In this document: in pieces, positions 48,446-62,448 of the stretch
Layout of the letters: every line of letters starts with the position of its first letter
Position numbering within the stretch: the first letter of the stretch is position 1
Origin: Escherichia phage phiWec179
Direction: 5' to 3' (one strand)
DNA: 64,000 nt
Sequence record: LC739533.1
Made by a program: the position numbers and the translations under genes
The notes under the pieces: model-generated
Told to the model about the DNA's origin: nothing
Seen by the model: only the letters and a program-made list of their open reading frames with translations
The model's database searches: none

Positions 48446-48539
48446 TGTAGTTGGCTTATTATTAGCTCGCTACGTGTCCGGCGTAGCGTGCTAATGATGA
48501 CTCTATGAATGATTCATTTTGCAATTATTACAGTCTTCA

Positions 48540-48770
48540 CTATTTCGGCAATAGTTATTATTTTAATGGTTTCATTTGTTATCGTTAGTTAGTTGGTTGT
48601 TTTGTCGTGTTATCGTTATCTTGCTTAGTATTCATCATGGTTTGATTGTTTGTCGTTATCAATCATCTTTCTATTATTCCTTTGATTATGATTAGTTTGC
48701 TTATTGTTTTAAGTCGTTAGTTGGTTAGTTGTTGCGAACTGTTATCAACATTATAGTTATGCACTTATAT
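48540..48770. repeat. AT-rich iteron region (GTTATCGTT / TTAGTTGGTT repeats), candidate origin
   Basis: Repeated gttatcgtt, ttagttggtt, TTATCAACA (DnaA-box-like, one mismatch to TTATCCACA); no ORF of 60 aa or more in any frame across 47.6-49.05 kb. Confidence 0.4.
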
Positions 48771-49011
48771 TGCATAGATACGCAAGGGTAGATGATAATG
48801 GTTATCATTGCACTGGAAAGGAAGAAAACAGCCTTTTTCGGTTGTTTGTTGTTGGTTGTTGATCGATTTTAACCGCTCTAAATAGCTCTCTAATAGCCTG
48901 TTGCCCTGGGGTGTATGGTTATTCGTTTAATGGTTGATTAGCTCGATACCGCGATCTATTCAGTTTTGTTCTGTGTCGGTTTTTCATAGGCGGAATCTAT
49001 CAACATTGTTC

Positions 49012-49042
49012 GGGCAAAAAGAAAGGGCGCTTTGTGCGCCCT
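49012..49042 (-). terminator. rho-independent terminator closing the leftward small-gene array
   Basis: AGGGCGC-tttgt-GCGCCCT hairpin with T-tract on minus strand, just downstream of ORF 49057..49476. Confidence 0.5.
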
Positions 49043-49056
49043 TGTTTTGTTGTCAA

Positions 49057-49476
49057 TTATAACGCTTCATAGATTGAGTAGATCCGGTTTGCCAGGTCAT
49101 TACGAAAGCGGAATTTTTCATCACGTTTAATCATCAGATCCTTAAAACCGCATTCTTTCAAGGCTTCATTAACTTTACTGCGGCATACTTTCATATTGTC
49201 CTGCGCGTCACCAATAAACTTATTGCTATGATGCATTGTTTTGATCTCTTCCTCCAGGACCAGGGCAACTACACGGATCGGATCAAGCTGATACGCGGTA
49301 ACATCCATGCGGCATTGTAAACGGCTTTTAACATCGTTTACCGGATACACTGCAACCTCTTCCCCGTCAACGTTCACAATAACCAGCTTACCATCAATTT
49401 CGAAGCCTTTCGCGGCGCTACCGTGGCAAAAAGCGTTATCGAAGGAGTAAGCCGGATTATTTGATTTAATGTTCAT
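49057..49476 (-). CDS. hypothetical protein
   Basis: 139-aa ORF; E. coli-like GC-richer codon usage. Confidence 0.6.
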   Translation of the reverse strand: MNIKSNNPAYSFDNAFCHGSAAKGFEIDGKLVIVNVDGEEVAVYPVNDVKSRLQCRMDVTAYQLDPIRVVALVLEEEIKTMHHSNKFIGDAQDNMKVCRSKVNEALKECGFKDLMIKRDEKFRFRNDLANRIYSIYEAL

Positions 49477-49521
49477 GTTGTTGTCCTTTGTTTCGTTTCG
49501 TTGTTTGCTGCCAGTGAGTTA

Positions 49522-49550
49522 AATATAATATAACGCCGATCCCCTGTCAA
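49522..49550 (-). promoter_or_regulatory. sigma70-type promoter (minus strand) TTGACA-17-TATATT
   Basis: Minus-strand TTGACA at 49550-49545 with AT-rich -10. Confidence 0.45.
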
Positions 49551-49616
49551 TAGGCGATAGCGCATTATTTACATTTCTTTACGTTAAAGGGCGCTTAGTG
49601 CGCCCCTTGTACAATC

Positions 49617-49985
49617 TTACTTTGTGCTGTTGTAAACGTTATCGCGTTCAACCATCAGGGCAAGGCGGATCAGTTGATCAGTTGTATCGCGTAAGCTGTC
49701 AGGCCATGTTTTATTGTTCCAGCTATCTAAATTTGATTGAATATAGGTTTCAATGGCTTGATCCATATTGTCGAACAAGTTTTCCTCCAAGCTCTCGGCT
49801 GTTTCACACTGGAAAGCATCAGCGACACTATTAATCAATAAGCAAGCCAGTAAATCAGCGTTGCGCCAATTTTTACGGATAGTTTCATCTGTCAGATAAC
49901 CAACGAGATTAACCTTTGCGCCAGTGGTGGACGTTGCGATCACTTCTTGCGCTTTTTCAACTGCTTTAATTGCTGATTTGCTCAT
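49617..49985 (-). CDS. hypothetical protein
   Basis: 122-aa ORF. Confidence 0.55.
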   Translation of the reverse strand: MSKSAIKAVEKAQEVIATSTTGAKVNLVGYLTDETIRKNWRNADLLACLLINSVADAFQCETAESLEENLFDNMDQAIETYIQSNLDSWNNKTWPDSLRDTTDQLIRLALMVERDNVYNSTK

Positions 49986-50063
49986 CTTCTTTTCCTCTTT
50001 GTGGGCTTGCTGTATTGCTTGCCCTACGCAATAACTATAAGTTAACAGGGTGTATAAAGCAAG

Positions 50064-50297
50064 CTATTTTTTATAAAATTTTTCTGCTGTGATATTCTTC
50101 CCTGTAGGCTTAACCGCTTGCAAGATCTTATCATGTGCCGAACGTCCAAAGGAATAAGATCCGTAAACGGTAAACCAATAATCCCCGTTCGGTTGAACGG
50201 TTACGGCGGCGTATGGTGTGCCTTTTTCATTATCACCAATAAAGTGTGAAACATTGCCGTTAACGTTCGGTTTAGTGCTTTTAATTTGTTCGATCAT
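50064..50297 (-). CDS. hypothetical protein
   Basis: 77-aa ORF preceded by cassette. Confidence 0.55.
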   Translation of the reverse strand: MIEQIKSTKPNVNGNVSHFIGDNEKGTPYAAVTVQPNGDYWFTVYGSYSFGRSAHDKILQAVKPTGKNITAEKFYKK

Positions 50298-50315
50298 GAT
50301 GTGACTCCTAAATCA

Positions 50316-50374
50316 GGCGGGAAACATTCCCGCCCTACGTGATAAATAATAATATAAGGGTGATCCGGTGTCAA
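50316..50374 (-). promoter_or_regulatory. promoter-leader cassette (TTGACA-17-TATTAT then GGCGGGAA-acat-TTCCCGCC leader hairpin)
   Basis: Read on minus strand; hairpin lies between -10 and RBS. Confidence 0.5.
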
Positions 50375-50548
50375 TAGGTAGAATTGTAAAGATTTGATAG
50401 TTTATCTCTTTGATGTTTTGTTGTTTGATAGGTGTTAGCTATCAATATATAGCGGGGTCGTCCGGTGATTACCTCCCCCGTTGCCAGTGCCGCCCGTTCA
50501 GTAAGCATAACAAAAAACAGGACAAAAACAAGCCCTGTTTTGTAAAGA

Positions 50549-50752
50549 TTAGATGATCTGCATATCCTCCACGATAATTTCTAATTTCCAAACAAGATGA
50601 TCTAAGCTCCCTGATAAAAATGATTCCGATACATAACCGCCATCGGACACCGTAGCAAGGATCTCGCCATTTGCTTGCTCTTTGATTTGAACATCCAGGC
50701 GGTTAGCCTTTGCTTTGTTCAGGACGGCGATCAAGCGGTTAGCTGTAGTCAT
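50549..50752 (-). CDS. hypothetical protein
   Basis: 67-aa ORF. Confidence 0.5.
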   Translation of the reverse strand: MTTANRLIAVLNKAKANRLDVQIKEQANGEILATVSDGGYVSESFLSGSLDHLVWKLEIIVEDMQII

Positions 50753-50774
50753 GGTGTTTTCCTTCCAGTCGTGA

Positions 50775-50830
50775 GCGGCACCATTGCCGCCCTACGTGAT
50801 ACATCTTACACTATCAGATACATTGTGCAA
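50775..50830 (-). promoter_or_regulatory. promoter-leader cassette (TTGCAC-16-TAAGAT then GCGGC-accatt-GCCGC hairpin)
   Basis: Conserved gtgagcggcaccattgccgccctacgtgatacatcttac block. Confidence 0.5.
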
Positions 50831-50836
50831 GCTATT

Positions 50837-51028
50837 TTAGATCTCGTCACCTATATAATCAGATCTGTTTTTCTCTGTCATACGCTTAAGCAATTCTTGC
50901 ATATGGCTTATAGCTTGCAATGTGTCTTCTTCCAGGCTTGAATCGAGATAATCAGGATCATTCTTTACCTTGCTATGGTTGTGATACCGCAACGCTGCTA
51001 ATACCTTTCTAACTTGTTCTGCATTCAT
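50837..51028 (-). CDS. hypothetical protein
   Basis: 63-aa ORF. Confidence 0.5.
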   Translation of the reverse strand: MNAEQVRKVLAALRYHNHSKVKNDPDYLDSSLEEDTLQAISHMQELLKRMTEKNRSDYIGDEI

Positions 51029-51171
51029 TTTTATTACTCCTTAAAACCAGGTGCCAACCGTTTCCAATAAGTCACTGACTACCAGAACAACATTGATTAG
51101 CACATATTTAATCAGGAAGGGGATTAGCGCCAGCGTCGCTACTATGATCCCCATTATGATGATTATTTTTC

Positions 51172-51462
51172 TCATGGTTGGCGGTTTACGTGGGCTTTAC
51201 CGTTTACGGTCATCGGTATGGCCTCAAGGTCTGGATCTTCCTTAAGGTCGCGTGCAAGCTCACCGCACCGGATACCCTCGAATCCGTGGTATTCTGTTTC
51301 CCCGTCCTTAAAAGTTTTAGCGGCAAGGCATAGGCGATAATTAACACCGATCCGGTTTACTGCGTTGATATCGGTTAACGTGATCGATTCCGGCAAATCG
51401 TTAGCCATTACAGGCGCGTTAATACCAACAACCAGGGCAACTACTGCGATCATCTTTTTCAT
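51172..51462 (-). CDS. small secreted protein (signal peptide)
   Basis: MKKMIAVVALVVGINAPVMA N-terminus. Confidence 0.55.
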   Translation of the reverse strand: MKKMIAVVALVVGINAPVMANDLPESITLTDINAVNRIGVNYRLCLAAKTFKDGETEYHGFEGIRCGELARDLKEDPDLEAIPMTVNGKAHVNRQP

Positions 51463-51517
51463 GTGTCTATCCTCTTCCTATTGCGTTTAATGGGGGCGTT
51501 GCCGCCCCGCTTATGGT

Positions 51518-51754
51518 TTATTGCTTGATGTTATGATGAAAGTTATTTTCTTCAACGGCTTTTAAAATAAAAGCCGTGATCGCTTTCGTGTCTACTTGTT
51601 CGAACGTATCAGAATAGCACCAATAATAATCATCCCCTACTTTCGGCGGGTAAACCTGGACAAGGAGATCCCCACCATGTTGATCTATAAGCTCAACATG
51701 TAAGCCGGATGATTCAGCGGTTTTAACGGCGTTTAATACTGTTGCAATACTCAT
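51518..51754 (-). CDS. hypothetical protein
   Basis: 78-aa ORF. Confidence 0.5.
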   Translation of the reverse strand: MSIATVLNAVKTAESSGLHVELIDQHGGDLLVQVYPPKVGDDYYWCYSDTFEQVDTKAITAFILKAVEENNFHHNIKQ

Positions 51755-51798
51755 AATCTTTTCCTTTCTGATGTGGGGCGTTGCCGCCCCTTTGTTGA

Positions 51799-52098
51799 TT
51801 AGATCGCTGTTTCCAGTAGTTCGGCTAACGTCTTACCGCCTGATAGTTGGTCTAATGTTTGCTCTTCTGGCAAGAAATTAGCTGATATTAAACCGACTTG
51901 ATTCCCTTTGTGCCAGTTAGCCTGGCGGGTGATTCCATCCTTTAAGGATTTTACCGCCATTGTGCAACCGTCGCCAAATGATTCATTTTTATGGTCCATC
52001 ACTTCATAAGCGCCCAGCTTGCTGCTGTTAGGCACCATTAACGCGAATACATCACCAACAACCAGTTTTTCTACGGTAACAATAGCGATAGTTTCCAT
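51799..52098 (-). CDS. hypothetical protein
   Basis: 99-aa ORF preceded by cassette. Confidence 0.55.
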   Translation of the reverse strand: METIAIVTVEKLVVGDVFALMVPNSSKLGAYEVMDHKNESFGDGCTMAVKSLKDGITRQANWHKGNQVGLISANFLPEEQTLDQLSGGKTLAELLETAI

Positions 52099-52116
52099 TT
52101 TGTTTTCCTCATTATC

Positions 52117-52173
52117 GGCGGCACCATTGCCGCCCTACGTGGTAAATATTATCACACTGGCGATCTGTGTCAA
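52117..52173 (-). promoter_or_regulatory. promoter-leader cassette (TTGACA-16-TAATAT then GGCGGC-accatt-GCCGCC hairpin)
   Basis: Perfect -35 and perfect 6-bp stem. Confidence 0.55.
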
Positions 52174-52179
52174 TACTTT

Positions 52180-52566
52180 TTATTCAATATAAATCAAATT
52201 ATCTTCACCAATGTAAGCCGACACGTCCGGCATGAATTTAGCGGCATTTGTTAGGCGGTTGGCTGTGTTAGTTGTGTATATTTCAGGGCGATCCCAAAAT
52301 CCTACGCCGTGACCGTTACGGGTAAAATGTAAATCATTGCCGATCTGGTTGGCTGTAGCGCCGTCGCTCATTGCCTCAGAGATAGCGGCAAGATTAGCAT
52401 TAATAAAGGCTGTTACATCTTGGGCGATTCGTTCATCCGCACCAGGAGAAAAATCATAATCGCCTAAGTTATCAATAAAATCACCTTCGTGATCCCTGGC
52501 TGATTCAGCAAAAATAAAAGCCTCTTTATAACCGTTGATGATTTCAATAATGATTTCTGTTTTCAT
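52180..52566 (-). CDS. hypothetical protein
   Basis: 128-aa ORF. Confidence 0.6.
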   Translation of the reverse strand: MKTEIIIEIINGYKEAFIFAESARDHEGDFIDNLGDYDFSPGADERIAQDVTAFINANLAAISEAMSDGATANQIGNDLHFTRNGHGVGFWDRPEIYTTNTANRLTNAAKFMPDVSAYIGEDNLIYIE

Positions 52567-52787
52567 GCTGTACGCTCGACAATAATAATAGTTTGCGGGA
52601 TCTCGTTTTCTACTACTAACAAGGCTTTTTTCTGTGTGATAGATATTTTAACACGTTGTAAAGTAGCGGTAAAGTCTTTCATTTCGTTATGCGCCGACTT
52701 GCTGCAATGCCAGATCTCAGGCTTACCGACTTGTAAGCCGCGTAAAAATTCTGTTTTGCCTGTTTTGTTCGTGATCATCTGTTTCAC
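52563..52787 (-). CDS. hypothetical protein
   Basis: 74-aa ORF. Confidence 0.5.
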   Translation of the reverse strand: MKQMITNKTGKTEFLRGLQVGKPEIWHCSKSAHNEMKDFTATLQRVKISITQKKALLVVENEIPQTIIIVERTA

Positions 52788-52788
52788 C

Positions 52789-52893
52789 TTAACCGATACC
52801 GTGGGAAGATAGGATCATATTAGCCATAGTTGCAACCACTCCAACCGATAACGCCAGGCCAACCACTGCAACCGTGAAAATTTTCTCTAACAT
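52789..52893 (-). CDS. small hydrophobic peptide (34 aa)
   Basis: Not in track; RBS gaggg; single hydrophobic helix. Confidence 0.3.
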   Translation of the reverse strand: MLEKIFTVAVVGLALSVGVVATMANMILSSHGIG

Positions 52894-52956
52894 GATGCTA
52901 CCCTCATTAATGGGCGTTGCCTTATTGCCCCGCCCTACAAGATGAATACTACGCGC

Positions 52957-53139
52957 TTATTTTGCTGTTGTCAACAACGGGCGAAAAAACTTTTTGATCT
53001 GGCTTGCTGTTAGGCGCATATCTGCTTTGAGCGTTGCCAGGCGATAAGCTTTACCCTTAACCAGTTTATGGTGTCCGGTGCCGTTGCCGATGATAACATC
53101 AATTTCACACAATACGCGGGAAGCATCAATCTTTTTCAT
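52957..53139 (-). CDS. hypothetical protein
   Basis: 60-aa ORF. Confidence 0.45.
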   Translation of the reverse strand: MKKIDASRVLCEIDVIIGNGTGHHKLVKGKAYRLATLKADMRLTASQIKKFFRPLLTTAK

Positions 53140-53221
53140 GTTGTTACCTTTCGTGTTATGGGGCGCTTGTCGCCCCCTGTCTGATAAAGATAATCCCTTT
53201 CGGGATATCTGTCAACTATTT

Positions 53222-53407
53222 TTATTGTACGGTGTGGCGATCGCTGTATTCAGCGTAAAACTCACATCCATCGTCACGGCTATCAAGTTTAACGATGTAC
53301 CCGCTATTCCAACGTTCAACTGATACTACCGGATAATACTTCCCGTTAAGGATATTTTTCACCAGGTCGCCTTTTACCAGTTCTTTCGTTTTCTTATAAG
53401 TAGTCAT
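53222..53407 (-). CDS. hypothetical protein
   Basis: Start at ATG 53407 just after the leader cassette. Confidence 0.5.
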   Translation of the reverse strand: MTTYKKTKELVKGDLVKNILNGKYYPVVSVERWNSGYIVKLDSRDDGCEFYAEYSDRHTVQ

Positions 53408-53606
53408 GATGTTTTCTCTTCTGTTTTGCGGTGGACCGTTCCGCCGCCCTATGTGGTAAACTATACGCGCCAACGTTCCAGGCGTCAAGCATATTTTTAA
53501 AATTATTTTCTACAACGTAAAACGCCCCAGCATAAGCCAGGGCGCACTAATTAAATCAGGTAGGGGGATTGCATTGCCTTACACCTTTTAGGCTGTTAGC
53601 TGGCGA

Positions 53607-53834
53607 TTAATAGCGTAGGATGTTTACACGCTCATCCCGCCCCAAGATATCCTCATATCTGTTTCCCCTTCCTTCGTACCAGATGATCACGGTATGAGGA
53701 TCAAACGGATTGTTTTCGATAGCCGTTACCTTGCAGAAGTCATAAGACGGGAACGGATAAACGCCAACCTGTAAACGCGCCCGATCTCCTGGGCGAATGG
53801 TAGCGGCACGATCTGCAATGATATTGTTATACAT
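53607..53834 (-). CDS. hypothetical protein
   Basis: 75-aa ORF. Confidence 0.5.
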   Translation of the reverse strand: MYNNIIADRAATIRPGDRARLQVGVYPFPSYDFCKVTAIENNPFDPHTVIIWYEGRGNRYEDILGRDERVNILRY

Positions 53835-53958
53835 GGTGCACCCCCTTAATATTTTTCTTTTTCTTTGCTTCCGTTCGTCTAAGGTTACGGCTTGACTTGT
53901 TACGCAAGGCGCTCAAATCATCATAACCTTTAAAAGGTTGCATATTGTTCGGATTCAT
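53827..53958 (-). CDS. small basic protein
   Basis: Start at ATG 53958 (RBS aagggg). Confidence 0.4.
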   Translation of the reverse strand: MNPNNMQPFKGYDDLSALRNKSSRNLRRTEAKKKKNIKGVHHV

Positions 53959-53968
53959 GCTACGCCCC

Positions 53969-54247
53969 TTAACGGTTATAGATATTGTGGATAGTGATAA
54001 AGGCGCTACGGTCATAAGCTGCCAAATCGGGATTGATCCAAGTGTTATCTAATAGTGTTTCAAGGATAATAGACTCATCATGAATAGCATCATAGAAATC
54101 AGGGTTAATAATGGTGTCAATGTCGCTTTCTGTTAACTCTACATTCAGCTTGCAAACCGCTTGCAAATCGGCTTCACGCTTCCAATCTTGCAGATTAGTA
54201 GTCAGAATGTTGGTGATCTCTTCGGTAGATAATTTGGTGATGGTCAT
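53969..54247 (-). CDS. hypothetical protein
   Basis: 92-aa ORF preceded by cassette. Confidence 0.55.
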   Translation of the reverse strand: MTITKLSTEEITNILTTNLQDWKREADLQAVCKLNVELTESDIDTIINPDFYDAIHDESIILETLLDNTWINPDLAAYDRSAFITIHNIYNR

Positions 54248-54265
54248 GATATTTTCTCTCTGTTA

Positions 54266-54323
54266 GGCGGGGCGCTTGTCGCCCCTATGTGATACATCTT
54301 ATCAGGTTGATTCAGCTTGTCAA
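54266..54323 (-). promoter_or_regulatory. promoter-leader cassette (TTGACA/TAAGAT then GGGGCG-cttgt-CGCCCC hairpin variant)
   Basis: ctctctgttaggcggggcgcttgtcgcccctatgtgatacatctta block. Confidence 0.5.
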
Positions 54324-54329
54324 TACTTT

Positions 54330-54536
54330 TTAACGTGTCGCGTAAATAATATTACTTGCCGGACTACTGCAAACCAGGTTAAGCGGCTTGCTGTTATATT
54401 GCATCTTGTCGGCTTGTTTGCTTGCTGCGATGATTCCATCTATTACACGTTGCAAACTAACCTTTACCGCCTTTTTTGCCAACCGTTGACGCTTTACCAG
54501 TGCCTGGATCTTTTTCTTGTCTGCGTTGCTTAACAT
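54330..54536 (-). CDS. hypothetical protein
   Basis: 68-aa ORF. Confidence 0.5.
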   Translation of the reverse strand: MLSNADKKKIQALVKRQRLAKKAVKVSLQRVIDGIIAASKQADKMQYNSKPLNLVCSSPASNIIYATR

Positions 54537-54545
54537 GGTGCGCCC

Positions 54546-54725
54546 TTACTTGTTAGCCGGATTGTATGCCAGGATCGCGCCGCTTGCTTTCACGCTTTCA
54601 TCTTCATAGTTGCGCAGATCGTTTTCTGTAAGATTGAGCGCGATCACTTCCTCGATCTCAATGCCAGTGGCAAGGGCGATCTCTTTAATGATGTTTGATG
54701 ATCTGATAACGTTTACTGTTTTCAT
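54546..54725 (-). CDS. hypothetical protein
   Basis: Start at ATG 54725. Confidence 0.45.
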   Translation of the reverse strand: MKTVNVIRSSNIIKEIALATGIEIEEVIALNLTENDLRNYEDESVKASGAILAYNPANK

Positions 54726-54735
54726 GGTGTGCACC

Positions 54736-54855
54736 TTATAAGATGATTGATAAGATAGTGATAACGAAAGCGATAACACCAACGGCGATCGTAGTCTTAC
54801 GCCCTTCGGATACTGCCGGATTCTCTACCGTGTATTCTACTGTGTATTTGTTCAT
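54736..54855 (-). CDS. small membrane peptide (39 aa)
   Basis: Not in track; RBS gagagga; hydrophobic C-terminus. Confidence 0.3.
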   Translation of the reverse strand: MNKYTVEYTVENPAVSEGRKTTIAVGVIAFVITILSIIL

Positions 54856-54954
54856 TGTGTTATCCTCTCGCTTGCTTTGAGAACTATTCCCGCCGCCCTA
54901 TGAATTAAATATACACTATCCCAAAATGATTGCAAGCCTTTTTCTAAATTATTT

Positions 54955-55239
54955 TTATGCAGTAAACAGACCATCATTTACAACGGCGGCGATGATCTCC
55001 CGTGCCATTGATTCAGGGAACGGGGCGCTATAGTCCTGGCTTGTCTCGTCGCTGTCTGTTACCCAATGATAAGCCAACGAGTAAAAGCCTTTACTCCCTG
55101 TTTTCAGTGAAACGATGATCACTCGGTTAAGTCCATCGGTAAACGTTGCCGTTAATGTGTTATCATCTTGCGTCATGTTGGACAAGTAAGCGGCATCATT
55201 AACCAGGGAAAACAGTAGCACCGTGTTAGCTTTAACCAT
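54955..55239 (-). CDS. hypothetical protein
   Basis: Start at ATG 55239 (RBS gagga); the track start 55269 falls inside the leader hairpin loop. Confidence 0.55.
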   Translation of the reverse strand: MVKANTVLLFSLVNDAAYLSNMTQDDNTLTATFTDGLNRVIIVSLKTGSKGFYSLAYHWVTDSDETSQDYSAPFPESMAREIIAAVVNDGLFTA

Positions 55240-55295
55240 GATTTGATCCTCAAACGGGCGCGGCACCATTGCCGCCCTACGTAATACACTTTACC

Positions 55296-55496
55296 TTATT
55301 TCTTCCAAAAAGCAAGTTTATTTGCAATTGGTGACAAATAACGTTTACCCGCGTAAAACAGTACAGCGACACTAACCACGGCGGCGATCTCATGCATAGC
55401 CGACGGGAAACGAGTATCATAATAAGATCCAATAATAGCAATAGCGGCAACGGCTGCAACGTCGATAATGATTTTTTCTTGTTTTGCGGTGATCAT
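55296..55496 (-). CDS. small membrane protein
   Basis: 66 aa, hydrophobic helices. Confidence 0.5.
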   Translation of the reverse strand: MITAKQEKIIIDVAAVAAIAIIGSYYDTRFPSAMHEIAAVVSVAVLFYAGKRYLSPIANKLAFWKK

Positions 55497-55584
55497 AATA
55501 TTTACCTTTTTGTATGGTGGGGGGAACTATTCCCCGCCCTGATGTAATACAGTTTAACAGATCCGGTTATAGTGTCAACCACTT

Positions 55585-55770
55585 TTAAAGATATTTTATA
55601 CTGATAACATTTTCCGGTTTAACCTGGTTGTGATAAGCATCAATGTAAATCAAACCATCGTTAGAAACGCCCAGGATCACGCCTTGCGCAATAAAACCGT
55701 ATCGGTCGCGGTAACGTGCCGCCACTTTGTTCGCTGCGTTGTAGGCTGTTTTAATCTCGTTTAAGGTCAT
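55585..55770 (-). CDS. hypothetical protein
   Basis: 61-aa ORF, RBS gagagga. Confidence 0.5.
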   Translation of the reverse strand: MTLNEIKTAYNAANKVAARYRDRYGFIAQGVILGVSNDGLIYIDAYHNQVKPENVISIKYL

Positions 55771-55828
55771 GTGCTGTTATCCTCTCGTTAGATATAAGAA
55801 AGGGCGCTATTTGCGCCCTTGATTTGTT

Positions 55829-55975
55829 TTAGTCTTCCAGGTCCATCCATGCACGTTTCTCGGTGCGGTCGCGCTTAGTTTTGTTGCGCTTGTCGCCCTT
55901 GCGGATCACTTCTTCATTCCACGCTGCGCGTGTTTTAGAAGATTGGATTTTTTCGGCGCGATTAGATGTATTCAT
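55829..55975 (-). CDS. small basic protein (48 aa)
   Basis: Not in track; follows leader cassette at about 55990-56070. Confidence 0.35.
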   Translation of the reverse strand: MNTSNRAEKIQSSKTRAAWNEEVIRKGDKRNKTKRDRTEKRAWMDLED

Positions 55976-56073
55976 GATGTTTCCTCTTTTTAGTTGTGAG
56001 CGGCACCATTGCCGCCCTACGTGTTTTAATTTACTTTATTGTTTGATGCCTGTCAACTACTTTTAAAAACTTT

Positions 56074-56427
56074 TTATTCGTGGGAAAGTGTAAGGATCAC
56101 ACCTGCAATATATAACCAATAGTTTTCCCTTTCTTTCTGGATCTTGTTTTCGCTACTACGCTCGTTAATGTACCCCCAGGATGTTAACAACCGATCTACT
56201 TCCCAATACTCGAAAGCTATATTAATATTTGACGGTAAACCTTGTAACCATGATGCTATTGCTCTGATAATGTTATGATCGTAACGTTTTTGATTATCGG
56301 TGTACCAATATTCAGATTTAAAACAGCGCATCAATTCCGCGATCTTCTCTTTCTCTTCTGTGATGCCATACTCGCTATAATCAATTGAGGCCAGAATATA
56401 AAGTTTAATTGCATTTTGTGCTTTCAT
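56074..56427 (-). CDS. hypothetical protein
   Basis: 117-aa ORF preceded by cassette. Confidence 0.6.
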   Translation of the reverse strand: MKAQNAIKLYILASIDYSEYGITEEKEKIAELMRCFKSEYWYTDNQKRYDHNIIRAIASWLQGLPSNINIAFEYWEVDRLLTSWGYINERSSENKIQKERENYWLYIAGVILTLSHE

Positions 56428-56448
56428 GGTGTCTCTCTTCTGTTGTGA

Positions 56449-56504
56449 GCGGCACCATTGCCGCCCTATGTGTTACATCTTACCGGATTTTTAAAACTTG
56501 TCAA
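56449..56504 (-). promoter_or_regulatory. promoter-leader cassette (TTGACA-16-TAAGAT then GCGGC-accatt-GCCGC hairpin, CACAACAGAAGAGAGA, ATG)
   Basis: Worked example: minus strand reads TTGACAagttttaaaaatccggTAAGATgtaacacatagGGCGGCaatggtGCCGCtcacaacagaagagagacaccATG. Confidence 0.55.
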
Positions 56505-56726
56505 TCATTTTTCTACTATCATTTGATAACCTGTTTCAAGGTTAGTAAACACCGTGATCCCGTCCTGGCGTTCACTCATAAGCAAGCAAGGCGCTAACAT
56601 CCTTCCTACTTCCTTGCACTCGTTATAAGCGGCGGTAATGTCTCCCGCTGCTTTGTCTTCTGTGGTGAATGTATCGTTTACGTAAACTTTACCAGCGACA
56701 ACGGCGACAATAGCAAAAGTGATCAT
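56505..56726 (-). CDS. hypothetical protein
   Basis: Start at ATG 56726. Confidence 0.5.
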   Translation of the reverse strand: MITFAIVAVVAGKVYVNDTFTTEDKAAGDITAAYNECKEVGRMLAPCLLMSERQDGITVFTNLETGYQMIVEK

Positions 56727-56804
56727 GATGTTTTCCTCTTTGTGTTTTTCGTTTTGATTAGTTGATAATACAGCAATTCGCAGATTAGTCTTTAGCAATT
56801 CATG

Positions 56805-57023
56805 CTATTTACTCACAACAGTATCGAAAACAAATTTTTCTTTGTTGTCGAAGCTAACATATCCGATTCGACCACGCAAGCCGCCAGTAGTGCCGTATTC
56901 GTAACCATCAAGGCCTTTAACCTTCCAATCCGTACCCATTAAAACCGCATTATATTTCTGACCAACTACAAACGCGCCACCAGTTGATTCAATGCAAACA
57001 ACTTTAATTTTACGGATTGCCAT
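56805..57023 (-). CDS. hypothetical protein
   Basis: 72-aa ORF. Confidence 0.5.
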   Translation of the reverse strand: MAIRKIKVVCIESTGGAFVVGQKYNAVLMGTDWKVKGLDGYEYGTTGGLRGRIGYVSFDNKEKFVFDTVVSK

Positions 57024-57101
57024 TTTCTTTCTCTCTTTGTGGTGATTGGTTTCTCTTCTCTATAGCGCCCATTATAAGGCGCTATAACGAAAAGTCAACG
57101 A

Positions 57102-57269
57102 TTATTTTTTACGGCTTAAGGTGCCCAAGTTATCAGCGTGACGCAGACCAGGGAAGATCCAAGCGCCGGATTCATCTTTTACAGGTGCCTTAACACTTGC
57201 GCCCAGGTTGGCGGCGTTAACTTTACGTGCTACGTTGCGAGCGGCTTCACGGGTAGTAAAAGTAATCAT
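57102..57269 (-). CDS. small protein (55 aa)
   Basis: Not in track; follows leader cassette. Confidence 0.4.
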   Translation of the reverse strand: MITFTTREAARNVARKVNAANLGASVKAPVKDESGAWIFPGLRHADNLGTLSRKK

Positions 57270-57511
57270 GATGTTTTCCTCTTCTCTTTGTTAGGCGGTG
57301 GACCATTCCGCCGCCTTGATGTAATACAGTTTACTCTATTTTTATTTCTTTGCAACTACTTTTATATTTTCTTTCTTTGCCTCTTCCACCTGGTCCGCCC
57401 ACTGCTTACCCCACGTTTGAGCGTTATAGTGATATTGACAAAGAGCAACACCACGTTTTAAACCAGCGATAGACTTTTTACCACATTGACAAGTTTTCAT
57501 TTTGTGATCCC

Positions 57512-57724
57512 TTAGTTGATGATAGTCAGTGTAAAATTATAATCACCATTCTTATATAACACCATATTACCGAAGGTGCCGACTCGACGCATATCCATAC
57601 GGATACCTATAACATCTTTAACGTCTTTAATGTTTTTAACGCCCGTGATATCTTTATTAAAATATTCCTCGTCTGAAAATAAAACTTGACTTGCATTTTT
57701 TAACAGTGTGCGGATATTAGCCAT
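57512..57724 (-). CDS. hypothetical protein
   Basis: 70-aa ORF. Confidence 0.5.
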   Translation of the reverse strand: MANIRTLLKNASQVLFSDEEYFNKDITGVKNIKDVKDVIGIRMDMRRVGTFGNMVLYKNGDYNFTLTIIN

Positions 57725-57749
57725 CGTGATAATCTCTCTTCTGTTGTGA

Positions 57750-57807
57750 GCGGCACCATTGCCGCCCTACGTAATACAGTTTACTCTTTTTCTTTCCGGT
57801 GTCAACA
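57750..57807 (-). promoter_or_regulatory. promoter-leader cassette (TTGACA-18-TAAACT then GCGGC-accatt-GCCGCC hairpin)
   Basis: Conserved gtgagcggcaccattgccgccctacgtaatacagtttac block. Confidence 0.5.
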
Positions 57808-57813
57808 ATCTTT

Positions 57814-58041
57814 TTAGATTAATTCGTCCAGGCATAACAGGCGATCAACGTTGAGATCGGTCAGGCTGATGGTTGGCACCTGATAAGATTCGATGTACTC
57901 GACGCTTGCATATTCCCCAAAGTTAGCAATAGCCCACTTATTCAAGATCTCACATACATCATTAATCTTTTTGTTTGTTACAACTGCAATAACCTGGGAA
58001 GTGCCAACGGTGCCGGATACGCGAACAATATTGATAGCCAT
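57814..58041 (-). CDS. hypothetical protein
   Basis: 75-aa ORF. Confidence 0.5.
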   Translation of the reverse strand: MAINIVRVSGTVGTSQVIAVVTNKKINDVCEILNKWAIANFGEYASVEYIESYQVPTISLTDLNVDRLLCLDELI

Positions 58042-58060
58042 GATTTTTCTCTCTTCTGTT

Positions 58061-58118
58061 AGGCGGGGCGCTTGTCGCCCCTATGTGATACATCTTACAC
58101 TAATTTAAAACTTTGTCA
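58061..58118 (-). promoter_or_regulatory. promoter-leader cassette (hairpin variant GGGGCG-cttgt-CGCCCC)
   Basis: Near-identical to the copy at 54266. Confidence 0.5.
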
Positions 58119-58214
58119 AATTATTTTCTATTTCTTCCGTAATAGCCCAATTTATGATCTAAGCTAAAACGTTTTGTGAGATAGGTCGAACGATGTTTCA
58201 TTTTTATGTCTCCT

Positions 58215-58454
58215 TTACATTCCAACCATAGCGGCGCGGATCGCGGTAGTGCTATACTTGAAACCGTCTGGAGTTTTATCTTGTCCAGTCTGTTCCAGAA
58301 AGAGCATCATATCACGCGCCGCATCGTTACGGTTAGAATTATAACTAATAAATTCTTTCGCGGTGCGGTATAATGATTCATCGTTATTAATCCAAAGGCT
58401 TACATTCCAATGAGTTTTGTTTTTGTGACCTAAGAACATTTTTGATTTAGCCAT
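58215..58454 (-). CDS. hypothetical protein
   Basis: 79-aa ORF. Confidence 0.5.
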   Translation of the reverse strand: MAKSKMFLGHKNKTHWNVSLWINNDESLYRTAKEFISYNSNRNDAARDMMLFLEQTGQDKTPDGFKYSTTAIRAAMVGM

Positions 58455-58543
58455 GATGTTAATCTCTTTTTCAGTGAGGCGGGAACTATTCCCGCGCCCT
58501 ATGTAATACAGTTTACTCTTTTTATTCGTGCTGTCAATGCTTT

Positions 58544-58897
58544 TTATAAATCTTTTTTACGTTTTACATCGCTTGCATGACTGTATACAGCGATCCCATT
58601 ATCACGACAAAAACGGGTAAGGTATGATCCGCGTGAAAACTCTTTCCCTTCCAGGTCAACAACCTTGCTAAATTCTTCCAGGGCAACGGTATCAAAATGA
58701 TCACCATAACCATATTGAAACGGCACGTTAACAACTTCAATCAATTTACCGCCGATCTCAACGTCCACGCTTAAAGAAAAATATGTGTTACCGTAGGACT
58801 GTTGAAACCAGCGACGGGCGCTAATGTGAACGGCTTCAATCTCACCAATTTTAAATTGAGTGTTACCCAGGATCGCAACGTTGATATTTTTAGCCAT
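58544..58897 (-). CDS. hypothetical protein
   Basis: 117-aa ORF. Confidence 0.6.
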   Translation of the reverse strand: MAKNINVAILGNTQFKIGEIEAVHISARRWFQQSYGNTYFSLSVDVEIGGKLIEVVNVPFQYGYGDHFDTVALEEFSKVVDLEGKEFSRGSYLTRFCRDNGIAVYSHASDVKRKKDL

Positions 58898-58993
58898 GAT
58901 TTTTTCTCTCTTTTTGGTTAGTGGGAAGTGTTCCCGATAAAAGTTATTATGCTTATACTATCGTTTTTTGTCAATAGTATAAGACTAAAACTT

Positions 58994-59173
58994 TTAACGA
59001 TAATCATCGTAGGCTTTATTAACCTGGCGAATATAACATTCGAAAGCGAGATCAATAGAATCATATTCCCGCACATAATCCCCGTAAGAAACTACATACA
59101 CACCTTTTTGATCCTCAAACGTCATGATGATAGAATCCAGGCCGATGATTTCAGTTTTAGCGATGATAGTCAT
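58994..59173 (-). CDS. small protein (59 aa)
   Basis: Not in track; follows leader cassette at 59190-59250. Confidence 0.45.
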   Translation of the reverse strand: MTIIAKTEIIGLDSIIMTFEDQKGVYVVSYGDYVREYDSIDLAFECYIRQVNKAYDDYR

Positions 59174-59261
59174 AATAATAACCTTTTTATTGTTGGCGGC
59201 ACCATTGCCGCCCTACGTGATAAACTATACCAGAATTTTAAACAGTGTCAAACGTTTTTTC

Positions 59262-59507
59262 TTAGTTTGCGAAATATGGCGCGGCGGCTGATGCCGTTAA
59301 TCTCCAAGTGATTTGGCTATCGATCAAGTATTCTTCATTCTTGATCCGCACGGTATCAATCGAGAAGTTACTGAAAGGCTTGCTCTTGATTTTACGAACA
59401 ACCGTTACACGACGGTTATTTTTCATCTCTTTTAACTGAATCCAGGCGTAACCTTTTTCATTGACAAATATTTCATTGTGATTGGTGATAGATGATAAGT
59501 GTTTCAT
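59262..59507 (-). CDS. hypothetical protein
   Basis: 81-aa ORF. Confidence 0.5.
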   Translation of the reverse strand: MKHLSSITNHNEIFVNEKGYAWIQLKEMKNNRRVTVVRKIKSKPFSNFSIDTVRIKNEEYLIDSQITWRLTASAAAPYFAN

Positions 59508-59530
59508 GATTTTTCTCTCTTCTGTTTTGA

Positions 59531-59589
59531 GCGGTGGACCATTCCGCCGCCCTATGTGTTACATCTTACTACTTTTTTAAACATTGTCA
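59531..59589 (-). promoter_or_regulatory. promoter-leader cassette (hairpin variant GCGGtGG-accatt-CCgCCGC)
   Basis: gagcggtggaccattccgccgccctatgtgttacatcttac block with TTGACA on minus strand. Confidence 0.5.
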
Positions 59590-59598
59590 AGGATATTT

Positions 59599-59880
59599 TT
59601 AACTATATGATCCACATCGTTCGCAGTAGTGATCATCGTCGTCATCTGCTACCTGGCTGATAAAATGATCTACCTTTGCTTTCAAATTATTATAATTGCT
59701 TTCTACTTCCTGTAGTCGTCGTTGGTAGTATTCCAGGGCTTGCACATAGGCCATTTGTTCGGTTTTAGCTTGCATAGCTAAATTCATGCCACGCGTTTCA
59801 TCGTATAACCAATAACCATCATTACATTCACTAATAGATAGTGTAGGGCTTAGTTTTTCGTGACGGATAACCTTGCTCAT
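59599..59880 (-). CDS. hypothetical protein
   Basis: 93 aa; C-terminal CERCGSYS. Confidence 0.5.
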   Translation of the reverse strand: MSKVIRHEKLSPTLSISECNDGYWLYDETRGMNLAMQAKTEQMAYVQALEYYQRRLQEVESNYNNLKAKVDHFISQVADDDDDHYCERCGSYS

Positions 59881-59890
59881 AGTGTGCCCC

Positions 59891-60124
59891 TTACTTCAAA
59901 ATGATTGTTGTGATAACTGCTACGGTGATCCAGAATGGAACAACTAAGATAATAGCGTTAATCGTTCCAACTGTCAAACTATTTTCTTTCTTGATCATCA
60001 TGTTTTCCTTACAGTGTCCAAAGAATGATTTCAAGTGCAGCACGGAAACCAGGAATAAAATTGATTGCAAAAAACAGGGAAGTAGTAAACATTTTTCTAT
60101 CCTTTCAGTTGTGAGCGGCACCAT
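59891..60124 (-). CDS. small hydrophobic membrane protein(s)
   Basis: The track ORF may be two short hydrophobic peptides; exact start unclear. Confidence 0.35.
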   Translation of the reverse strand: MVPLTTERIEKCLLLPCFLQSILFLVSVLHLKSFFGHCKENMMIKKENSLTVGTINAIILVVPFWITVAVITTIILK

Positions 60125-60170
60125 TGCCGCCTGATGAGTTAACTATAAGGGATCACGTTTTACCTGTCAA
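60115..60170 (-). promoter_or_regulatory. promoter-leader cassette
   Basis: gtgagcggcaccattgccgcc with TTGACA on minus strand at about 60170. Confidence 0.45.
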
Positions 60171-60724
60171 CCTAAATCATCAAAATAAAGATAATTTTTT
60201 TCGGCTTCTTTCTTCTCTTCCTGTGATGCCTCAAAGACTGGGAGAAAGTGATCAAAGGCGACGCACTCAACCGCTTGATCGTCTTCCTCTTCCTGGTCTT
60301 CCTCCTGGGCTATGGCTGCAATTTTGGCTAATTTCCTTTCAGCCTGGATCAGCTTACCATCTAAAACGCTTTTAGCGGTGCTGTACGCCGTCCAAGTGAT
60401 GCGCTTACTTTCCAGCGCGGCATCAAGCGCCGCTATCTTGCTGGGGTATTCATCCAGGACACGAAAAGCCGGATCTACCTTGTACAGCGGATTATCTTTC
60501 GCGCCGTCGCTATCATCTGCGGCGCTTGCAATGTCAGCGTTACCATTCGCCAGCCAACCAGGGCGATCGCTGCGTGTTTTGGTATTCCCATGACTACGCG
60601 CCGATCTGTTGCCTACTTGCTCGCCACTATAGCCAGGAGCATGATCGATCATGTCGTCCGGTATAATGCGCGGATCATTAACGTCATGTTTTACCCAGGA
60701 CTGGATCACATATTCGCGCCCCAT
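60167..60724 (-). CDS. hypothetical protein
   Basis: 185 aa, largest protein in the array; RBS aaagggg. Confidence 0.6.
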   Translation of the reverse strand: MGREYVIQSWVKHDVNDPRIIPDDMIDHAPGYSGEQVGNRSARSHGNTKTRSDRPGWLANGNADIASAADDSDGAKDNPLYKVDPAFRVLDEYPSKIAALDAALESKRITWTAYSTAKSVLDGKLIQAERKLAKIAAIAQEEDQEEEDDQAVECVAFDHFLPVFEASQEEKKEAEKNYLYFDDLG

Positions 60725-60984
60725 TATACACCCCTTTTAACAATCATTTCACACACAAGAAATAAGCTGGCGGAATCACGGCAAGGATAGAAAGATGTAC
60801 GATAATCTCTCACCCCTGCTTTTATGATCTCCGTGGTTTTACCTGATAGCACATTGTAAATAGTGTAACTTGTCGGACTGTTTTTATATACCTTGCCAGG
60901 GTAGATCATAACATAACGAGCAAGGTTATAAAATTCCTCGTTACGAAAGGCTATGATCTTCCCGCATACCTTAAGAAAGTGCAC
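60724..60984 (-). CDS. hypothetical protein
   Basis: Probable GTG start with RBS aaggggg. Confidence 0.45.
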   Translation of the reverse strand: MHFLKVCGKIIAFRNEEFYNLARYVMIYPGKVYKNSPTSYTIYNVLSGKTTEIIKAGVRDYRTSFYPCRDSASLFLVCEMIVKRGV

Positions 60985-60994
60985 GTTAGCCCCC

Positions 60995-61267
60995 TTACAG
61001 CAAAAAGTTTACTTGTCTTGCTGTTAATGTAGTATCAACCATTTTCGGGCTTTTATAATTGACAAAACGCGCGGTTTTTTCAATAGCGAAGCCGAGATAA
61101 TCTTGTTTGTTGAAATTACATTCTTTCTTAAATGTTTCCCGTGCAATGGCGATCGCTGCGTCCAGGGATAAACGCCCGTCAATATTGATATTTGCGAAAG
61201 ATCCGCCACCGCTCATAGGTTTACCAGTGGTGCCCGTTACGATCATTGTTGCGCTATATGATGCCAT
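60995..61267 (-). CDS. hypothetical protein
   Basis: Start at ATG 61267 after the leader cassette. Confidence 0.5.
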   Translation of the reverse strand: MASYSATMIVTGTTGKPMSGGGSFANINIDGRLSLDAAIAIARETFKKECNFNKQDYLGFAIEKTARFVNYKSPKMVDTTLTARQVNFLL

Positions 61268-61357
61268 GATGATAATCTCTCTTAGTTGTGAGCGGTGGAC
61301 CATTCCGCCGCTCTACGTGATACATCTTATCAGGTTGTTGCCTGTTGTCAATACTTT

Positions 61358-61555
61358 TTATTCAAGCCCTACGATATGTAAGACACGGCGATTAGCAATA
61401 GCGTGCTGGTCTTCTGTTATAACGCCCATTTCTACCAGTGAATCAAGAAAGGAAAGCACCGTGATATATTCGTCATCGGGTACACTCATTTCATTAGTAC
61501 CGTTTACCACTACGTTGATTTGTCCTGCTTTCGCTACAATGTGCAATGTTGCCAT
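61358..61555 (-). CDS. hypothetical protein
   Basis: 65-aa ORF, first gene of the array. Confidence 0.5.
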   Translation of the reverse strand: MATLHIVAKAGQINVVVNGTNEMSVPDDEYITVLSFLDSLVEMGVITEDQHAIANRRVLHIVGLE

Positions 61556-61829
61556 GATCTTAACTCCAGGTGATGAATGATGTTTTTTGTTGGTTGACGG
61601 TGGATTATGGAGATCCTCACCTTTGCCCGTCCTGCATTGCGCCCTCCTGTTGTTTATTGTCGTTGTGCCTCGCCCCCCTCGACAAGATTAATACTACGCT
61701 ACCAGGTGCGGAACGTCAACGACTTTTTCAATCTTTTTTATTTTCTTTTTGCTTGCTATATATAAAGGAAAGGGCTATCATCTTTCTACCGCGCCAACCA
61801 GGGCGCACAACAGAAGAAAGGGCGACACC

Positions 61830-62096
61830 ATGACAACTACTACATTACACCTTATGCACTCGTTAGGCTGGCAAGGCGGCACGGTCCACCAGGTAGCAAG
61901 CGCAACGGGCTTAAAGGTTGAAACAGTTCTCAACCTGGGCGATCATAAAGTGGAAGAGATAGACCATTTTGATCCGTTCGCTGATGGTTATCTCTGGGCT
62001 TGCAGTGGCGGCGGGGAAAGCAAGATACCGCCAGCCGCGCGGGGCGATATGCATTTTTGGTTAGGTGTTCTCTCCTGGCAAGAAAACAAAAAATAA
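61830..62096 (+). CDS. hypothetical protein (isolated rightward gene)
   Basis: Start at ATG 61830; leader has GCGCC-aaccag-GGCGC hairpin followed by ACAACAGAAGAAAGGG, mirroring the minus-strand cassettes. Confidence 0.5.
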   Translation: MTTTTLHLMHSLGWQGGTVHQVASATGLKVETVLNLGDHKVEEIDHFDPFADGYLWACSGGGESKIPPAARGDMHFWLGVLSWQENKK

Positions 62097-62240: not shown

Positions 62241-62351
62241 AGAAATGTAAAGATAAAATAATCGCTTGCTTTCCTGGCTGGATCTGTTATTCTTATTACA
62301 TGGCGAGGGGACACGGGAGCGCGAGACAATCACCGGACCTGCCCGTCATTC

Positions 62352-62438: not shown

Positions 62439-62448
62439 CGATTTTAAG

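Follow-up and report, generated by a model that had tools for sequence, protein, structure and literature searches.

A repeated cassette of sigma-70-type promoter and predicted 5′ hairpin in the small-gene array of Escherichia phage phiWec179

Results

A promoter and hairpin cassette recurs in an array of small genes

The window analysed here is a stretch of 64,000 nt of Escherichia phage phiWec179 (LC739533.1), a Phapecoctavirus of the Stephanstirmvirinae, and the element in question is a cassette of ~95 bp, comprising a promoter, a hairpin and a leader, that recurs on the minus strand of its small-gene array:

49057–61555, minus strand: array of about 40 leftward small genes, all of unknown function (from the list of open reading frames, ORFs)

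The record of phage phiWec181 carries 38 coding sequences (CDS) in this region, annotated as hypothetical, and a few more tiny ORFs were read here. A PHROGs scan of 20 array proteins matched solely families of unknown function for 19 of them, with no match for the remaining protein, and no tRNA or tmRNA was found in a scan. Approximately 23 cassettes were counted, among them some identified by eye in which the −35 is weak or the hairpin is a variant. The initial annotation had proposed more than 20 copies of a promoter and hairpin module, and all 16 coordinates that it gave as examples fall on the 3′ ends of hairpins mapped here. It had also assigned an own copy to nearly every short gene; the cassettes are real, but ~23 cassettes for ~40 ORFs amount to an own copy for roughly half of the genes, and the genes without one are grouped in operons of 2–4 genes behind a cassette.

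In most cassettes the 5′ part contains the TAA stop codon of the upstream gene within an A-rich tract, typically TAAAAAGTA (AAAAGTA and similar before the −35), that resembles an UP element. This is followed by TTGACA, a spacer of mostly 16–17 nt (16–18), and a −10 of TAAGAT, TAAACT, TATAGT or TATTAT, so that the promoter is, judged by its sequence, of near-consensus host sigma-70 type. A conserved box of ~10 nt (GTATYACRTAG) lies between the −10 and the hairpin, around the predicted transcription start. The hairpin starts ~10 nt after the −10 hexamer, a placement that is fixed in about 21 of the 23 copies; with the transcription start taken as the usual ~7 nt after the −10, an estimate based on geometry, it would begin at roughly +3/+4 of the predicted transcript. 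A leader of 17–25 nt with a weak purine Shine-Dalgarno sequence separates the hairpin from the ATG, and is composed of 52% A and 13.5% U, compared with 25% U in the array sense strand. The hairpins fall into the following classes:

Class A: GGGCGGC-AATGGT-GCCGCYC, 8 copies
Class A′: GCGGCGG-AATGGT-CCACCGC, 4 copies
Class B: GCGGGAA-TAG/TGT-TTCCCGC, 3–4 copies
Class C: GGGGCG-ACAAG-CGCCCC, 3 copies
Class D: two helices around AATACA/AATAAG, 2 copies

The cassettes, named by position and given with −35, spacer length and −10, are:

61268–61366, minus strand: m61351, TTGACA-16-TAAGAT; hairpin 61316–61288, class A′ (GCGGCGG-AATGGT-CCACCGC); ATG 61267; −18.2 kcal/mol, z −3.3
60093–60185, minus strand: m60170, TTGACA-17-TATAGT; hairpin ~60131–60114, class A; ATG 60092 (27-aa hydrophobic ORF)
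59508–59605, minus strand: m59590, TTGACA-16-TAAGAT; hairpin 59552–59529, class A′; ATG 59507
59174–59266, minus strand: m59251, TTGACA-16-TATAGT; hairpin 59212–59195, class A; ATG 59173; synteny break relative to three relatives
58898–58989, minus strand: m58974, a variant, TTGACA-17-CATAAT; weaker hairpin GGGAA-CAC-TTCCC, 58935–58923; ATG 58897
58455–58552, minus strand: m58537, TTGACA-16-TAAACT; hairpin 58499–58476, class B (GCGGGAA-TAG-TTCCCGC); ATG 58454
58042–58134, minus strand: m58119, TTGACA-16-TAAGAT; hairpin 58081–58065, class C (GGGGCG-ACAAG-CGCCCC); ATG 58041
57725–57820, minus strand: m57805, TTGACA-16-TAAACT; hairpin 57770–57746, class A; ATG 57724; top match of the covariance model, 74.6 bits
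57270–57370, minus strand: m57355, TTGCAA-16-TAAACT, with the −35 within the upstream gene; hairpin 57316–57293, class A′; ATG 57269; synteny break
57024–57113, minus strand: m57098, TTGACT-16-TATAAT; hairpin ATAGCGCC/GGCGCTAT, 57085–57062, across the −10; ATG 57023
56428–56519, minus strand: m56504, TTGACA-16-TAAGAT; hairpin 56466–56447, class A; ATG 56427
55976–56071, minus strand: m56056, TTGACA-17-TAAATT; hairpin 56020–55996, class A; ATG 55975
55497–55593, minus strand: m55578, TTGACA-16-TAAACT; hairpin 55539–55519, class B; ATG 55496
55240–55330, minus strand: m55315, weak −35, TAAAGT; hairpin 55277–55257, class A; ATG 55239
54856–54950, minus strand: m54935, degenerate, TTGCAA-16-TATATT; decayed hairpin (−5 kcal/mol); ATG 54855
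54248–54338, minus strand: m54323, TTGACA-16-TAAGAT; hairpin 54285–54269, class C; ATG 54247; synteny break relative to four relatives
53408–53503, minus strand: m53488, TTGACG-17-TATAGT; hairpin 53447–53428, class A′ with loop AACGGT; ATG 53407
53140–53230, minus strand: m53215, TTGACA-17-TATCTT; hairpin 53176–53160, class C; ATG 53139
52894–52989, minus strand: m52974, a variant, TTGACA-17-TAGTAT; hairpin 52935–52912, class D (GGGCG..GC-AATAAG-GC..CGCCC); ATG 52893; E = 0.8; synteny breaks
52099–52188, minus strand: m52173, TTGACA-16-TAATAT; hairpin 52134–52117, class A; ATG 52098
50753–50845, minus strand: m50830, TTGCAC-16-TAAGAT; hairpin 50796–50770, class A; ATG 50752
50298–50389, minus strand: m50374, TTGACA-17-TATTAT; hairpin 50335–50315, class B (GGCGGGAA-TGT-TTCCCGCC); ATG 50297
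49986–50077, minus strand: m50062, TTGCTT-17-TATAGT; hairpin 50024–50003, class D (GGGC-AA-GC-AATACA-GC-AA-GCCC); ATG 49985

The loops are AAUGGU/AAUAGU, UAG/UGU/UGG, ACAAG and AAUACA/AAUAAG. The loop conservation described in the initial annotation therefore stands within a hairpin class but not between classes, where the loops differ; an AAU(G/A)G element is common to classes A, A′, B and D, and is also seen in hairpins of phages phi92 (Justusliebigvirus) and FV3 (Vequintavirus). In m57098 the inverted repeat covers a perfect TATAAT, and its hairpin therefore lies outside its own transcript.

Two further units lie at the upstream end of the array:

61556–61734, minus strand: first array promoter, TTGACG 61719–61714 and TAGTAT 61696–61691, with a 135-nt leader before the gene at 61358–61555
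61738–61829, plus strand: divergent cassette of the same design, TTGCTA-17-TATCAT; hairpin GCGCC-AACCAG-GGCGC, 61791–61806; leader ACAACAGAAGAAAGGG; ATG 61830

In the first array cassette the hairpin has been lost and ~100 nt of unrelated sequence are found in its place (~61575–61685, minus strand), where the relatives phiWec190 and Schickermooser carry GGGCGGCAATGGTGCCGC, a normal class A hairpin. The divergent plus-strand cassette before the gene at 61,830 is conserved in phi92.

Cassette copies exceed background and are restricted to the array

The start box GTATCACRTAG, with at most one mismatch, occurs 12 times compared with 1.7 expected, and 11 of the 12 occurrences are on the minus strand inside the array. 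A strict descriptor (TTGACA-like, 16–19 nt, TANNNT, 3–15 nt, GC hairpin) returned 16 minus-strand copies at 50.3–61.4 kb, over a background of 3 further minus-strand sites elsewhere and 7 weak plus-strand sites; the −35 is TTGACA in 15 of these 16 copies and TTGACG in the other, and their spacers are mostly 16–17 nt. Promoter sites (TTGACA with a 16–17 nt spacer) with at least 10 of 12 matches number 23 on the minus strand compared with 3 on the plus strand, in agreement with the original promoter assignment. As MAFFT alignments over all hairpin classes left the stems out of register, a covariance model covering the −10, hairpin and leader was seeded on class A, the commonest hairpin class, and run with filters off. 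At E ≤ 1 the model gave 19 matches, all on the minus strand at 49,988–61,329, and none elsewhere in the 64 kb, with cassettes m53215 and m54935 being missed. When the model was run on the window and six relatives, every one of the 104 matches was on the coding strand of the array.

Predicted folding and conservation of the hairpin

Predicted folds of the 5′ untranslated regions place the start of a hairpin of −11 to −18 kcal/mol at 0–4 nt from the predicted 5′ end, and leave the leader, the Shine-Dalgarno sequence and the AUG all unpaired. A transcription start anywhere 6–8 nt after the −10 would keep the hairpin within 0–4 unpaired nt of the 5′ end.

In the model alignment of the window and six relatives, 95.3% of the stem cells are paired, compared with 88.8% in shuffles and 38–67% when the partners were slid, and one stem pair alternates between CG (38), GC (24) and GU (4). 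The stems hold 44 G·U cells compared with 4 A·C/C·A cells, and the helix is therefore better on the sense strand than on the complement, which favours a structure in RNA (or single-stranded nucleic acid) of sense polarity over a palindrome in duplex DNA. Among the orthologous cassettes of four relatives, identity was 0.935 in the −35, 0.934 in the −10, 0.911 in the start box, 0.917 in the stem, 0.926 in the loop, 0.89 in the leader, 0.835 in the promoter spacer and 0.794 at third codon positions. Rfam gave no family match at gathering thresholds over the whole 64-kb window (nut/put-type and leader elements included), and just two chance-level matches at E ≤ 1 over the array.

Cassette hairpins differ from the intrinsic terminators of the array

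The tails of the cassette hairpins contain 0–3 T in the 8 nt after the stem. In a terminator scan of the minus strand no cassette hairpin qualified, whereas four other hairpins of the array did, with canonical hairpin and T-tract sites listed at 49,043, 50,541, 53,545 and 55,820:

49023–49043, both strands: canonical two-way intrinsic terminator, ending the array
55800–55820, both strands: canonical two-way intrinsic terminator within the array, a contrast class to the U-less cassette hairpins
53522–53545, minus strand: canonical intrinsic terminator with T-tract
50514–50541, minus strand: canonical intrinsic terminator with T-tract, followed by a conserved non-coding stretch

The phage therefore employs ordinary terminators where needed, and an intrinsic (rho-independent) terminator was rejected as the identity of the cassette hairpin due to the absent T-tract. 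This agrees with the initial description of a hairpin that lies after the −10, has no U-tract and is not a canonical terminator.

Two hairpins of identical sequence are without a promoter:

51775–51790, minus strand: promoter-less hairpin GGGGCG-GCAA-CGCCCC in leader position, gene start 51754
51493–51508, minus strand: promoter-less hairpin GGGGCG-GCAA-CGCCCC in leader position, gene start 51462

Read on the plus strand, these two hairpins have T-rich tails and look like terminators of antisense transcription.

The non-coding stretch after the terminator at 50,541–50,514 (50375–50545, minus strand) contains ...GTTATGCTTACTGAACGGGCGGCACTGGCAACGGGGGAGGTAATCACCGGACGACCCCGCTATATA... and shares 79% identity across 97 nt with FV3 (13495–13600), an rV5-like phage; much of the coding sequence is less conserved. 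The stretch has no match in Rfam, and may encode a small RNA or act as a structured leader.

Gene gain and loss at cassettes

Comparison with relatives identified hybrid cassettes at gene gain and loss junctions. In phiWec190 the gene at 55,296–55,496 is absent, and in the sole cassette at this site a 5′ part corresponding to m55578 is followed by a 3′ part corresponding to m55315; the crossover lies in the −10/start box. Schickermooser carries one extra gene flanked by two cassettes, and m52173 of the window is a hybrid of those two, comprising the 5′ part of the upstream cassette and the 3′ part of the downstream cassette, with the crossover inside the hairpin. In a synteny comparison with five relatives, 12 of the 30 distinct breakpoints were in cassettes, which occupy 21% of the array (p = 0.013), and the remaining breakpoints were mostly at the stop codons of neighbouring genes. 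The relatives thus appear to have gained and lost genes by recombination between cassette copies. An 87-bp insertion (58128–58214) with a 26-codon ORF, absent from phiWec190, Mt1B1_P17 and nieznany, is located between a stop codon and the next cassette.

Cassettes in related phages and in public annotation

BLAST with one cassette matched 154 phage records in Phapecoctavirus, Justusliebigvirus (phi92) and Vequintavirus (FV3, nimi, PDX and slur16), with matches in the more distant records restricted to the −10, hairpin and leader. The hairpin is again ~10 nt after the −10 in phi92 (13 copies) and FV3 (~8), with varying sequence; variants include GGCGGGAAA-TGG-TTTCCCGCC, GGGGCAA-ACGTC-TTGCCCC, GGGCA-AAAG-TGCCC and GGGCC-AAAA-GGCCC, and the loops include AAC, ACGUC, AAAG and AAAA. 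The feature conserved across subfamilies is the position and predicted stability of the hairpin and not its loop.

Parts of the cassette have been labelled in public records, where the same sequences are found at homologous positions. In phAPEC8 (JX561091) the sigma-70 part is labelled 'host dependent promoter (MEME)' and the 20-mer ATAGGGCGGCAATGGTGCCG 'putative promoter determined with PHIRE', and in vB_EcoM_ASO2A (MZ726793) the hairpins are labelled 'rho-independent terminator (WebGeSTer/TransTermHP)'. The public annotation therefore splits the halves by pattern tools, with the hairpin as a second promoter or a terminator, whereas here they are read as parts of a single cassette whose hairpin is predicted to be transcribed at the 5′ end. 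A search of the full-text literature, which did not cover the phAPEC8 genome announcement, found the motif undescribed for Phapecoctavirus, Justusliebigvirus and Vequintavirus, and found no paper that treats the pieces as one 5′-hairpin cassette and no transcriptome of these phages.

In two cassettes the downstream gene is in frame with the ATG that the hairpin loop contains (AATGGT; 60995–61303 and 54955–55269, minus strand), and the phiWec181 record begins both CDS at this loop ATG. End-to-end alignments with PHROG profiles are obtained for the shorter proteins that begin at 61267 and 55239, and for this reason the deposited phiWec181 starts are probably wrong.

Codon usage and genome setting

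The array had initially been described as GC-richer, with more E. coli-preferred codons, than the neighbouring 27–47 kb block. The first part was rejected, as neither GC (0.421 compared with 0.420) nor GC at third codon positions (0.431 compared with 0.412, p = 0.22) differs, but the array does contain a larger proportion of E. coli-preferred codons (0.554 compared with 0.485, p = 5e-4), in a comparison based on an approximate ORF set and an assumed optimal-codon list. This higher use of preferred codons fits early gene expression from the host tRNA pool.

The sequence at positions 55,500–61,700 of the window matches Escherichia phages phiWec181 and phiWec186 at 100% identity and other Phapecoctavirus members at 85–93%; left of 55,500, several small replacements separate the window from phiWec181. 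The first 27 kb of the window contain plus-strand nucleotide-metabolism and sugar-nucleotide genes, including RmlB-, RmlA- and RmlD-like genes of the dTDP-sugar pathway (10284–13559), with ribonucleotide reductase and ThyX nearby and a Sir2-family gene at 26118–26918. The leftward genes at 27–47 kb form a tightly packed block, which is separated from the array by a non-coding gap of 1.5 kb without an annotated gene (~47.4–48.95 kb). GTT-rich degenerate repeats (48,550–48,750) and two short inverted repeats, perfect or near-perfect (48,340/48,452 and 48,382/48,519), lie in this gap. The array probably adjoins a genome end, because the right terminal repeat of phi92 lies just beyond the homologous array, and by the same analogy the gap at ~47400–48950 may be the genome end.

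Behind cassette m60170, at ~59891–60092 (minus strand), there are two very short hydrophobic ORFs of ~27 and ~36 codons, possibly small membrane peptides; relatives annotate this region otherwise, with a CDS of 31 or 63 codons. The divergent gene (61830–62096) and the next leftward operon are separated by 0.8 kb of non-coding sequence, which contains tandem repeats at 62347–62465 (23 nt in 2.2 copies and 40 nt in 2 copies).

Discussion

The initial annotation of this array did not raise the presence of cassettes at gene gain and loss junctions, the existing public annotation, or the likeness to promoter-early stem-loops (PeSLs), the closest known system, which is found in the T4-like phages RB49/phi1, T4/PST and KVP40/nt-1 (Arbiol et al. 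2010, PMC2839356; Comeau et al. 2014, PMC4122927). The order of parts is shared (upstream stop codon in an AT-rich tract, sigma-70 promoter, stem-loop, Shine-Dalgarno sequence, start codon), as are the stable stem-loop with a G-run followed by a C-run (here GGGCGG.../...CCGCC(C), −11 to −18 kcal/mol), the concentration in a variable region of small genes without known relatives, and the indel junctions between close relatives inside the motif, stem-loop included. PeSL cassettes also form mini-circles (PMC2839356). The lineage differs, being Stephanstirmvirinae and Vequintavirinae and not T4-like. The PeSL stem-loop occurs in five positions, most commonly between the −35 and −10 or over the −10 (PMC2839356), whereas here it is fixed ~10 nt after the −10, within the predicted transcript, in three genera, and only m57098 matches the T4-type arrangement with an inverted repeat across the −10. 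The cassettes are best classed as PeSL-like units in a new lineage, with a fixed hairpin that is predicted to be transcribed.

The closest analogues in mechanism are the stabilising 5′-terminal stem-loops of E. coli mRNAs, exemplified by ompA and papA, and the T7 gene 10 leader, which is used in pET vectors. Like them, the cassette has a stable hairpin a few nt from the predicted 5′ end and leaves the ribosome-binding region behind it open. The known cases are single and experimentally proven and have no sequence similarity to the cassette hairpin, whereas the cassette is repeated ~20 times per genome and its start site and stabilising effect are predicted. Base pairing at the 5′ end of an RNA greatly slows its cleavage by RNase E, and E. 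coli mRNAs are stabilised by 5′-terminal stem-loops (review PMC3997798, citing Emory 1992, Bouvet & Belasco 1992).

With some reserve, we favour reading the cassette as a modular early-expression unit, in which the hairpin serves as a 5′-terminal mRNA stabiliser and context insulator. Host RNA polymerase would fire all cassettes right after infection, and the hairpin would be the 5′-terminal structure of each mRNA, where it would most likely shield the 5′ end against RppH/RNase E 5′-end-dependent decay. The hairpin would also give every unrelated gene one common open ribosome-binding context. Where transcription reads through from an upstream cassette, the hairpin would lie between cistrons of the resulting RNA and could block 3′ exonucleases. 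As the cassettes are near-identical direct repeats, homologous recombination between copies would add and remove genes, as an evolutionary by-product or possibly as a benefit.

Several points weigh against this reading. The folding z-scores of single hairpins are modest (−1.65 to −3.3), and the independent compensatory events are few, because the alignment was fitted to the model and many of the sequences are related. The enrichment of breakpoints in cassettes is moderate, and conserved flanks alone would yield part of it. Initiation at least 4 nt upstream of the estimate could leave a single-stranded 5′ tail long enough to lose protection. The m57098 hairpin is absent from its own mRNA and the hairpins at 51.5 and 51.8 kb have no promoter, indicating that the hairpin has some role independent of a 5′-terminal position, and an additional role in upstream or read-through RNA is likely. 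Finally, one T4-type PeSL stem-loop behaved as a strong terminator when tested in a reporter.

The alternative that survives best, which we nevertheless consider unlikely, is that the hairpins act chiefly on upstream transcripts, as attenuators, terminators or 3′-end barriers that insulate the units from read-through. This is the role proposed for T4-type PeSL stem-loops, which were interpreted and tested as terminators, with one of them cutting lacZ expression as strongly as rrnB T1 (PMC2839356). The m57098 hairpin over the −10 and the two promoter-less hairpins require no 5′-terminal position for such a role, and the annotators of ASO2A named the hairpins rho-independent terminators. However, the cassette hairpins lack a T-tract in an array that has four terminators with one, and an efficient terminator behind a promoter would halt that promoter's own transcripts. 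A fixed distance to the −10 in three genera would also be unneeded for a terminator, and the position of the PeSL stem-loop varies.

A rather less probable alternative is that the hairpin, alone or together with its conserved flanks, marks early mRNAs for recognition by a protein of the phage or the host. Such a tag might be read by a translational repressor that brings about early shut-off or by an antiterminator of the nut/put type, or it might protect the mRNAs from a nuclease induced by the phage. The motif is limited to one temporal class of genes, the loop and start box are conserved like the stem between orthologues (0.926 and 0.911), and four hairpin classes (A, A′, B and D) share AAU(G/A)G with hairpins of phi92 and FV3. 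Yet class C (ACAAG) and several FV3/phi92 hairpins (AAC, ACGUC, AAAG, AAAA) have unrelated loops in the same position, and identity of loops within a genome is expected from copying between cassettes, which explains it equally well; the case for a sequence-specific loop-binding factor, as suggested in the initial annotation, is thus weak. Rfam gave no match at either threshold, and no candidate binding protein was identified; all array proteins tested are of unknown function. The lambda nut (boxA/boxB) and HK022 put sites resemble the cassette in being small hairpins with conserved flanks just downstream of early promoters, but no N-like protein was identified here, put requires two stem-loops of ~70 nt, and the cassette array has one hairpin per gene and not per operon. 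A more specific and more doubtful form of the tag, consisting of hairpin, start box and AAU(G/A)G loop, would be one by which a phage-encoded factor distinguishes early phage mRNAs from host and later phage mRNAs. If true, the tag would spare early mRNAs in phage-induced host mRNA decay or shut the early class off together, and would be a class-wide post-transcriptional switch common to Stephanstirmvirinae and Vequintavirinae.

That the inverted repeat acts in DNA, as the operator of a dimeric repressor overlapping the start site, a cruciform/recombination site without an RNA role or a phage-specific promoter, is very improbable despite its placement over +1 to +25 (the classic operator position), the crossovers in or beside it and the promoter label of the phAPEC8 20-mer. 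The half-sites change sequence yet stay complementary, and G·U cells outnumber A·C cells 44 to 4, a bias relevant solely to a single strand of one polarity; together these make a duplex-DNA operator unlikely. The loops are asymmetric and 3 to 6 nt long, and PHIRE reports just repeated 20-mers. No consistent −10-like element follows the hairpin, on which ground the phage-specific promoter was rejected. Promoter hairpins of the N4 type lie upstream of the start and require the virion RNA polymerase, and this possibility was dropped as the cassette hairpin is preceded by a full sigma-70 promoter.

Recognition of the cassette as one unit corrects the annotation of hairpins labelled as terminators or second promoters, and of the start codons, probably wrong, that the loop ATG gave in deposited genomes. 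With a strong promoter, a 5′ hairpin and an open A-rich leader driving many unrelated genes, the cassette would be a compact natural unit and a possible portable expression element. For the biology of these phages, an early-expression unit of this kind would extend the idea of a mobile regulatory cassette from T4-like phages to the phAPEC8/phi92-like and rV5-like coliphages used in phage therapy, and recombination between cassettes would help to explain the fast turnover of their early gene sets.

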